In this document: piece after piece, positions 63,001 to 64,000 of the stretch
Layout of the letters: every line of letters starts with the position of its first letter
Numbering within the stretch: position 1 is the first letter of the stretch
Assembly (NCBI RefSeq): GCF_000027125.1
Contig: NC_017626.1
Origin: Escherichia coli 042
GTDB taxonomy: Bacteria > Pseudomonadota > Gammaproteobacteria > Enterobacterales > Enterobacteriaceae
Direction: 5' to 3' (one strand)
Length of the DNA: 64,000 nt
Program-made: the position numbers

Positions 63001-64000
63001 GTGCGCGCCATTCCCTGAGCGATAAACCCCGCGCCCTGTTCATGGCGAGCCAGAATATGGCGGATTTGCGTGCTTTGGCTTAAGGCATCGTAAACAGGCA
63101 GGATAGAACCGCCCGGAATGCCCGTCACAATCTTAATGCCCTGCTGTTCCAGGAAATGAACGATAAATTCTGCGCCGGTAAAGCGCTTACGCGTCGATGA
63201 TGTGCCCGAACTTGCCATGCTCCAGTCCTTTTCTTCTGGGCCGACTTTCCGGGAGGTGCTTAAACGAAAAACCCCGCCCGGTTTGCGCCGGCGGGGTTTT
63301 GGAATCGTGTGTTGTTCCAGTCCCTACGGCGCATTGCCGACGACCACCACCACACGCACGACGACCACTGCGGCGGATGGCGCAGTTGGTAGTAGTTTTG
63401 CGTTGAGCATGGAAGTAGTCATTGGGGACCTTGTTGGTTTTGTGTTTAACAATATTTATACAAGCACAGCTTTACAGGGGAGACAATGGAAAATTTTTCA
63501 GCAAGGGAAAATTGAGGGGTTGATCACGTTTTGTACTGTACTGCAGGTAACAAAAAACCCCGCCGGAGCGAGGTTTCGTCAGTCGCCTGCGGCTGGTAAC
63601 CGCAAAGCACACTGTATTATGTCAACACTGAAAGTATACGTGTTCCGCGCAGAACGCGCAATTTCGGCACGAATTTTGACGTATTTAGTGCATAGTTGAG
63701 TATCGATCACACTTTACGTTTTGTCTAAATATTACTGTTTATTTATACAGTAAGCTTCTATAATATCACTGTACGCAATGTGTTATGCGGGGGCCGCATC
63801 GTTACCCGGCGCACTAAGTCCTGGCTGAAACGGGTGGTGCCGTCAGCGCCTTAACCCCGCGTGAGCACACTGTGTTATGTCAACAAGCACAACGTTTCTC
63901 CTTGAGATACCGCGTGCACAACAGCTGGCAACAGGCAGCGGAAAGGTACGTCAGCTGGCAGTGCTCCTGAACCACAGGAGACGCGTATGAGCCTGGTGGA

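Follow-up and report, generated by a model that had tools for sequence, protein, structure and literature searches.

The right-hand end of a 64-kb window of Escherichia coli 042 holds the istR–tisAB toxin–antitoxin locus, cut within tisB

The window analysed here, a stretch of 64,000 nucleotides of the E. coli 042 chromosome (contig NC_017626.1), ends in the E. coli chromosomal type I toxin–antitoxin locus istR–tisAB, which is situated in the interval from ivbL to emrD and of whose toxin gene, tisB, the first 14 nt fall inside the window; we put the probability of this identification at about 95%. The tisB/istR-1 pair is the best-characterised chromosomal type I toxin–antitoxin system: it is SOS-induced, subject to standby-ribosome control and linked to ciprofloxacin-induced persisters. 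An earlier note on this DNA, made from the sequence alone, had proposed the locus, and an Rfam match to istR, synteny and a TisB open reading frame in related genomes all agree with it. We observed directly which sequence elements are present, how they are arranged, which of them are complementary and that they agree in sequence with the E. coli locus. Earlier publications cover the locus together with its regulation and distribution, and also the N2S allele of the toxin, and the feature is ordinary and already known. The analysis consequently carries little weight as a discovery and is of use for annotation: it anchors the window as E. coli DNA of the ilvBN–emrD region and shows that istR, the LexA operator and the tisAB leader are all contained in it in full.

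The 771 bases 63230-64000 matched 5,419 of 5,426 complete E. coli genomes by megablast, always on the chromosome. Identity of the region with E. coli chromosomes was 99.0-99.4%, and the features beneath the best matches (99.4%) were ivbL and tisB. The homologous stretch of K-12 MG1655 is annotated ilvB, ivbL, IstR-1 (73 nt), IstR-2 (140 nt), tisB, ysdE and emrD; LHM10-1 and ECA64 carry the K-12 protein-coding genes in the K-12 order, in records without an istR feature. The left flank is inside the window and consists of ilvN (61236-61526), ilvB (61530-63218) and ivbL, the leader peptide gene of the ilvBN operon (63324..63422), all on the minus strand. As the left neighbour of istR–tisAB, ivbL is the synteny anchor: an ORF is listed at 63324-63452 (minus) whose C-terminal part reads ...MTTSMLNAKLLPTAPSAAVVVVRVVVVVGNAP, and ivbL is annotated there in LHM10-1 and K-12. 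The right flank, ysdE and emrD, is seen in matching genomes only, where emrD stands on the right-hand side, so that the position between ivbL and emrD given in the earlier note is borne out. Between ivbL and ilvB, the minus strand has a G+C-rich hairpin and, after it, a T-run (63262-63298), presumably the ilvBN attenuator terminator; the hairpin also gave weak, sub-threshold Rfam matches on the plus strand (terminator portions of P6 and STnc310). Alignment to K-12, which the note had put forward as a check, placed the annotated istR-1, istR-2 and tisB at the equivalent position. Across 63755-63990 the window, LHM10-1 and K-12 are identical, and this stretch takes in the whole leader and tisA along with the tisAB -10 hexamer and the Shine-Dalgarno sequence. 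Over 63400-64000 the window and K-12 differ at about eight positions.

The regulatory centre of the locus is a LexA operator (SOS box), TACTGTTTATTTATACAGTA, at 63733..63752. Compared with the consensus TACTG(TA)5CAGTA it has two mismatches, both in the central A/T spacer, with the CTG and CAG triplets intact; the earlier note had called it near-perfect. The TATAAT that had been noted after the box was likewise found, at 63759-63764 on the plus strand, 6 bp past it; read directly as the tisAB -10 hexamer, it is separated by 6 nt from the inferred transcription start, 63771. A palindrome of this kind might be a chance inverted repeat of A/T-rich intergenic DNA and not a functional LexA site, and indeed the bare core CTGT-N8-ACAG is expected to occur about 0.6 times by chance in 64 kb, so that significance rests on the full 20-mer and its context. 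The full 20-mer argues strongly for a genuine operator: the window contains one site with three or fewer mismatches to the consensus, namely this one, and 100 dinucleotide-preserving shuffles contained none. The box is moreover invariant among the window, LHM10-1 and K-12, the LexA site is kept in 94% of E. coli tis/istR loci (PMC11264685), and for the identical K-12 sequence the function as an SOS operator was confirmed by Northern blot (PMC2577331). We therefore regard a chance repeat as extremely improbable, a reading effectively refuted by the consensus match, the conservation and the published operator function. Binding of LexA and derepression dependent on RecA are likewise on record for that K-12 operator (PMC2577331), and the tisAB (ysdAB) genes are listed among the SOS genes (PMC6590174); for the heterology index of the ysdAB box, the open literature yielded the definition and no value.

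The operator, as we read it, serves two promoters. It lies between the divergent tisAB and istR-2 promoters, 5 bp from the -35 hexamer of istR-2 and 6 bp from the -10 hexamer of tisAB, hence one operator for both, and it extends over the -35 and the spacer on the tisAB side. The istR-2 promoter (TAGACA, 17-nt spacer, GATACT; 63699..63727, minus strand) was the sole sigma-70-like match of a consensus scan of 63200-64000, and 7 nt lie between its -10 hexamer and the annotated start of IstR-2 (63691). The same scan called neither the tisAB nor the istR-1 promoter because their -35 hexamers are weak (a poor TGTTTA in the case of tisAB); the -10 hexamers and spacings of these two were read by hand or script. 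For istR-1, a script pattern returned TTGCGC, a 17-nt spacer and TATACT on the minus strand (63661 to 63633), with 8 nt between the -10 hexamer and the annotated start of IstR-1; this candidate is likely to be the istR-1 promoter. At 63754, in the tisAB spacer and two bases beyond the 3' edge of the operator, the window has a G where K-12, LHM10-1 and ECA64 all have an A, and the G creates an AAGCTT motif. For the 60-mer 63725-63784, at most 19 of 4,349 matching genomes fell in the band of at least 99% identity, and among the matches listed one, 18KM2445, was full-length and exact.

Beyond what the earlier note spelled out, the window contains istR in full and, with it, the site that the antisense RNA targets. 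By transfer of the K-12 ncRNA annotation through the alignment, the constitutive antitoxin sRNA IstR-1 (~73-75 nt) occupies 63552..63624 and the SOS-induced 140-nt isoform IstR-2 occupies 63552..63691, both on the minus strand, with a common 3' end and terminator. The Rfam istR family, RF01400, matched 63552-63681 (minus) over its full length (model positions 1-130 of 130), scoring 150.1 bits (gathering score 45; E = 6e-33), and IstR-1 falls within the matched stretch. IstR-1 combines an antisense tail at its 5' end with two hairpins and a Rho-independent terminator: at 63569-63557 there is a hairpin that resembles a terminator and has a T-run, and the predicted fold has two hairpins (-32.5 kcal/mol). 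Just 3' of this terminator the window carries substitutions at 63539 and 63541 (GTACTGTACTGCAGG, against GTACTGAATTGCAGG in K-12 and LHM10-1), variants that are absent from both genomes aligned there. The antisense element, at the 5' end of IstR-1 and internal in IstR-2 (63606..63627, minus), is complementary to the tisAB leader. On the plus strand this relation appears as a direct repeat, D2, in which 63606-63627 and 63864-63885 are identical at 21 of 22 positions, and the single difference becomes a G·U pair in the antisense pairing. The 5' tail of IstR-1 is predicted to form a 23-bp duplex with the leader (-37.7 kcal/mol). When the whole of IstR-1 was paired with the +42 mRNA in RNAduplex, a duplex of ~65 nt (-73.5 kcal/mol) was returned; we discarded it as an artefact, since intramolecular structure is ignored in that computation, which was redone with the 5' tail only.

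The tisAB RNA is 359 nt long, and the insert of plasmid pBK410 starts 66 nt upstream of its start site (PMC2577331). Taken together with the GATC at 63705-63708, this insert boundary would place the tisAB +1 at 63771, and the window would then hold the first 230 of the 359 nt (63771..64000, plus strand) before the mRNA runs off its edge. The end of a 359-nt RNA would correspond to a terminator near the window-equivalent position 64129, and in LHM10-1 and ECA64 a hairpin is found at the expected distance. Within the leader, the second copy of repeat D2, AGCACACTGTGTTATGTCAACA (63864..63885, plus strand; +94 to +115), is the IstR-1 target and ribosome standby site, and lies about 100 nt upstream of the tisB Shine-Dalgarno sequence, which was read directly as AGGAG (63976..63980, plus) 6 nt before the ATG. 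The 22-mer has been named the istR antisense sequence (PMC2577331), and the standby-site mechanism, supported by structure probing and toeprinting, is summarised in PMC4147584.

Folding with ViennaRNA gave a picture that is consistent with the published mechanism. The segment from the Shine-Dalgarno sequence to the AUG was about 80% paired (probability of being unpaired ~0.2) in the +1, +42 and +106 forms of the mRNA alike. In the minimum-energy fold of the +1 form, 5' nucleotides 3-24 paired with a segment into which the first half of the IstR target falls, and the mean probability that the target is unpaired rose modestly, from 0.38 to 0.47, after +42 processing. With a rise of this size, the structural switch rests on the published probing and not on the computed folds; the folding and duplex computations agree with the mechanism but are not decisive. 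The '+106' species is reportedly the product of IstR-1 and RNase III (Darfeuille et al. 2007). In the numbering used here it would be 63876, inside the IstR-1/target duplex.

Between the target and tisB runs the tisA frame, taken from the ORF list (37 aa, MSTSTTFLLEIPRAQQLATGSGKVRQLAVLLNHRRRV; 63877..63990, plus), whose stop overlaps the tisB start in the tetranucleotide ATGA (63987-63990). The 37-aa frame matched no Pfam family, and tisA has ceased to be annotated as a CDS in K-12 RefSeq. There is no experimental evidence of its translation, although the ORF is present in >99% of loci (PMC11264685). That conditions exist in which tisA is translated, that its translation serves to bring ribosomes to the start of tisB, or that G63754 alters basal tisB expression seems to us quite unlikely; what speaks for these readings is the conservation of the frame and the rarity of the allele.

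A further element of the leader raises the question of whether the tisAB transcript acts also, or even mainly, as a regulatory RNA that damps the SOS response and directs cleavage of uxaA mRNA. A 20-nt stretch read directly at 63796..63815 (plus), GCATCGTTACCCGGCGCACT, is intact in the window and has been identified as complementary to uxaA mRNA (PMC2577331). The same study reported tisAB-dependent uxaA cleavage and a residual UV sensitisation by a plasmid carrying TisB M1I, and it found the tisAB RNA to be cleaved within the 20-mer; numbered from 63771, the published +42 processing site falls at ~63812, inside it. The uxaA and UV effects were, however, seen on multicopy overexpression, and the phenotypes were later assigned to membrane depolarisation by TisB (PMC2826370, PMC8145889, PMC11264685). 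We thus consider a regulatory role of the transcript unlikely; it would in any case supplement the toxin model and not replace it.

In the toxin model, a single high-affinity LexA operator at 63733-63752 would repress tisAB rightward (start ~63771) and istR-2 leftward (start 63691), and IstR-1 (63624 to 63552) would be expressed constitutively from its own promoter. On DNA damage, RecA-stimulated cleavage of LexA would release tisAB transcription. The 359-nt primary transcript would be translationally inert because the ribosome-binding site of tisB is buried in structure, and 5' processing at +42 (~63812) would convert it into a translatable mRNA. On this +42 form, 30S subunits would first bind the single-stranded standby site (63864-63885) and arrive at the tisB start from there. 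IstR-1 would pair through its 5' tail with exactly these 22 nt, leading to exclusion of ribosomes and to RNase III cleavage; with the standby site blocked in this way, TisB would be made only when the mRNA outnumbers IstR-1. The toxin, a hydrophobic peptide of 29 aa and here of the Ser2 allele, would insert in the inner membrane, collapse the proton-motive force and ATP, and push a fraction of the cells into antibiotic-tolerant dormancy as persisters. LexA control, processing, the standby mechanism and toxin activity are established in the literature and are drawn from it, not from this analysis (PMC4147584, PMC11264685 and PMC2577331 for the LexA–IstR-1–TisB mechanism; for depolarisation and persisters also PMC2826370 and PMC8145889). 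Induction by SOS, repression through IstR-1, depolarisation and toxicity have been described for the K-12 locus and for the N2S allele.

The tisB gene itself (90 nt and 29 aa in full) is represented in the window by its start, ATG AGC CTG GTG GA (63987..64000, plus). These last 14 nt, ATGAGCCTGGTGGA, comprise four complete codons, M-S-L-V, followed by GA. The earlier reading of MSLVD therefore stands for its first four residues; the codon for the fifth is cut after GA and could specify D or E, and it is GAT (Asp) in all three relatives aligned. Annotated tisB genes are found at the equivalent position in LHM10-1, ECA64 and K-12. LHM10-1, which is identical to the window base for base over 63771-64000, continues past the edge with a 90-nt ORF encoding the 29-aa peptide MSLVDIAILILKLIVAALQLLDAVLKYLK and then a strong terminator hairpin, and ECA64 does likewise. 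The peptide of these relatives matched Pfam PF13939 (TisB_toxin) with 37.6 bits against a cutoff of 25. The note had held that downstream sequence not encoding a 29-aa TisB-like peptide would speak against the locus; in both relatives a 29-aa TisB is encoded there. In E. coli 042, an intact tisB past position 64000 would read ...TATCGCCATTCTTATCCTCAAACTCATTGTTGCAGCACTGCAACTGCTTGATGCTGTTCTGAAATACCTGAAGTAA, followed by a terminator, GGGGAGCGG...CCGCTCCCC.

The second residue differs from the MNLVD with which the earlier note had compared it. MNLVD... is what K-12 encodes, and the difference is real strain variation. A 60-mer spanning the tisB start was identical to the window, and hence Ser2, in 3,286 of 4,355 matching genomes: Ser2 is the commoner E. 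coli allele and not an error. In a published survey Ser2 was found in 85% of loci; the allele is named TisB-N2S and is somewhat more toxic at low induction (PMC11264685).

The gene could still be a decayed one, present at its start and disrupted or truncated just past the window edge by an IS, a frameshift or a deletion. Disruptions are found in nature: strain DETEC-S560 has an ISKox3 insertion in the operator and promoter and about 20% of complete E. coli genomes are without the module, and over 63230-64000 the window haplotype is identical to that of no complete E. coli genome (best 99.4%). Against decay, at least 80% of the 771-bp query was found in one piece in 4,150 of the 5,419 matching genomes, and 4,355 have the 60-mer of the tisB start. 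All regulatory elements in the window are intact, with 63755-63990 the same as in K-12, and the 29-aa ORF is intact in the two closest of the relatives examined. We accordingly hold a damaged tisB to be very improbable, and the remaining 76 nt of the gene are probably intact in E. coli 042, judging from the sequence of these relatives.

Comparison across genomes brought out several forms of variation at the locus. In about 1,070-1,270 of the 5,426 complete E. coli genomes, the match to the window stops at position 63499. The istR–tisAB module (~0.6-0.7 kb) is thus a presence/absence polymorphism, missing in about one fifth of complete E. coli genomes. In one genome that lacks it, uk_P46212 (excerpt 2771-2925), unrelated filler of ~100-150 bp between ivbL and ysdE replaces the module, and a search of the filler region (excerpt 2600-3100) gave no significant Rfam match. 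Diverged homology in this genome seems to run to about the istR 3' end, for which reason the replaced segment may be the module plus a REP element. In DETEC-S560 (excerpt ~3517-4830), an ISKox3-family (ISL3-like) element lies inside the LexA box and tisAB promoter and separates tisB from its operator and from istR. The match to the window breaks at 63746 and, judging by a partial match in another genome (H52), resumes near 63739, which would suggest a target duplication of ~8 bp. A third case is ECA64, the closest complete genome over 57000-64000 (99.2%). Its equivalent of 63738 has C for T, changing the left LexA half-site from CTGT to CTGC, and ten further differences were counted across 63500-64000; its tis/istR region seems more diverged than the flanks.

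Other parts of the window were also inspected. Between uhpA and ilvN, two minus-strand ORFs of 478 and 435 aa were found (58028-59464 and 59678-60985). They gave no Pfam and no PADLOC match and are called 'hypothetical protein' in matching genomes. In DETEC-S560 uhpA and ilvN are adjacent, as they are in K-12. At least 80% of 57000-64000 was covered in only 1,046 of 5,426 genomes, and the segment with the two ORFs therefore looks like a variable insertion. Farther upstream, a P4-like satellite island comes after selC, the tRNA-Sec gene (12606-12700). It encodes a tyrosine integrase (12863-14044), a primase-helicase (20923-23256) and an Ash-family protein (19089-19724), and two of its genes (14180-15616 and 15613-16551) match the AriA/AriB models of PADLOC as a pair; isrK and the C4 antisense RNA with its a1b1 target are at 19196-19472. 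A minus-strand ORF of 3,806 aa (35271-46691) has an inverse-autotransporter beta-domain (residues 148-423) and, after it, upwards of 20 Ig-like repeats of the Big_1/Invasin_D3 type, and looks like a giant intimin/invasin-type adhesin; a regulator with an OmpR-type winged helix and TPRs (33522-35219) adjoins it.

Among known systems, the nearest is tisB/istR-1 of K-12 MG1655 (b4618, b4616), which shares with the window its chromosomal position adjoining ivbL; each defining trait of this system that is visible in the window is present there. It differs in codon 2 of tisB, AGC (Ser) in the window and AAC (Asn) in K-12, and the window also carries the promoter-spacer G at 63754, a rare allele, and the two SNPs at 63539 and 63541. 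The E. coli dinQ/agrB system resembles tisB/istR-1 in three respects: a small membrane peptide under LexA control, a divergently encoded antitoxin sRNA with short complementarity to the toxin leader, and an inert primary transcript, which in dinQ/agrB is activated by 5' processing at +44 (PMC3567139, PMC5066626). In contrast, it has another peptide, other sRNAs and another chromosomal site, with no sequence relationship, and the RNA in the window corresponds to the Rfam istR family and not to agrB. The zorO/orzO and shoB/ohsC systems likewise have a divergently encoded antitoxin, whose pairing partner is a long 5' UTR and not the ribosome-binding site (PMC4147584); their toxins and sRNAs are unrelated to those of the window, and in the literature compared no LexA regulation is described for them. 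Finally, hok/sok shares a small membrane toxin, an mRNA that needs processing before translation, and an antisense RNA that obstructs a translational element lying upstream, with cleavage by RNase III as the next step (PMC4147584). Unlike IstR-1, Sok is cis-encoded and overlaps its target; control of hok proceeds through translational coupling to mok and not through a standby site, and the system is not under SOS control.
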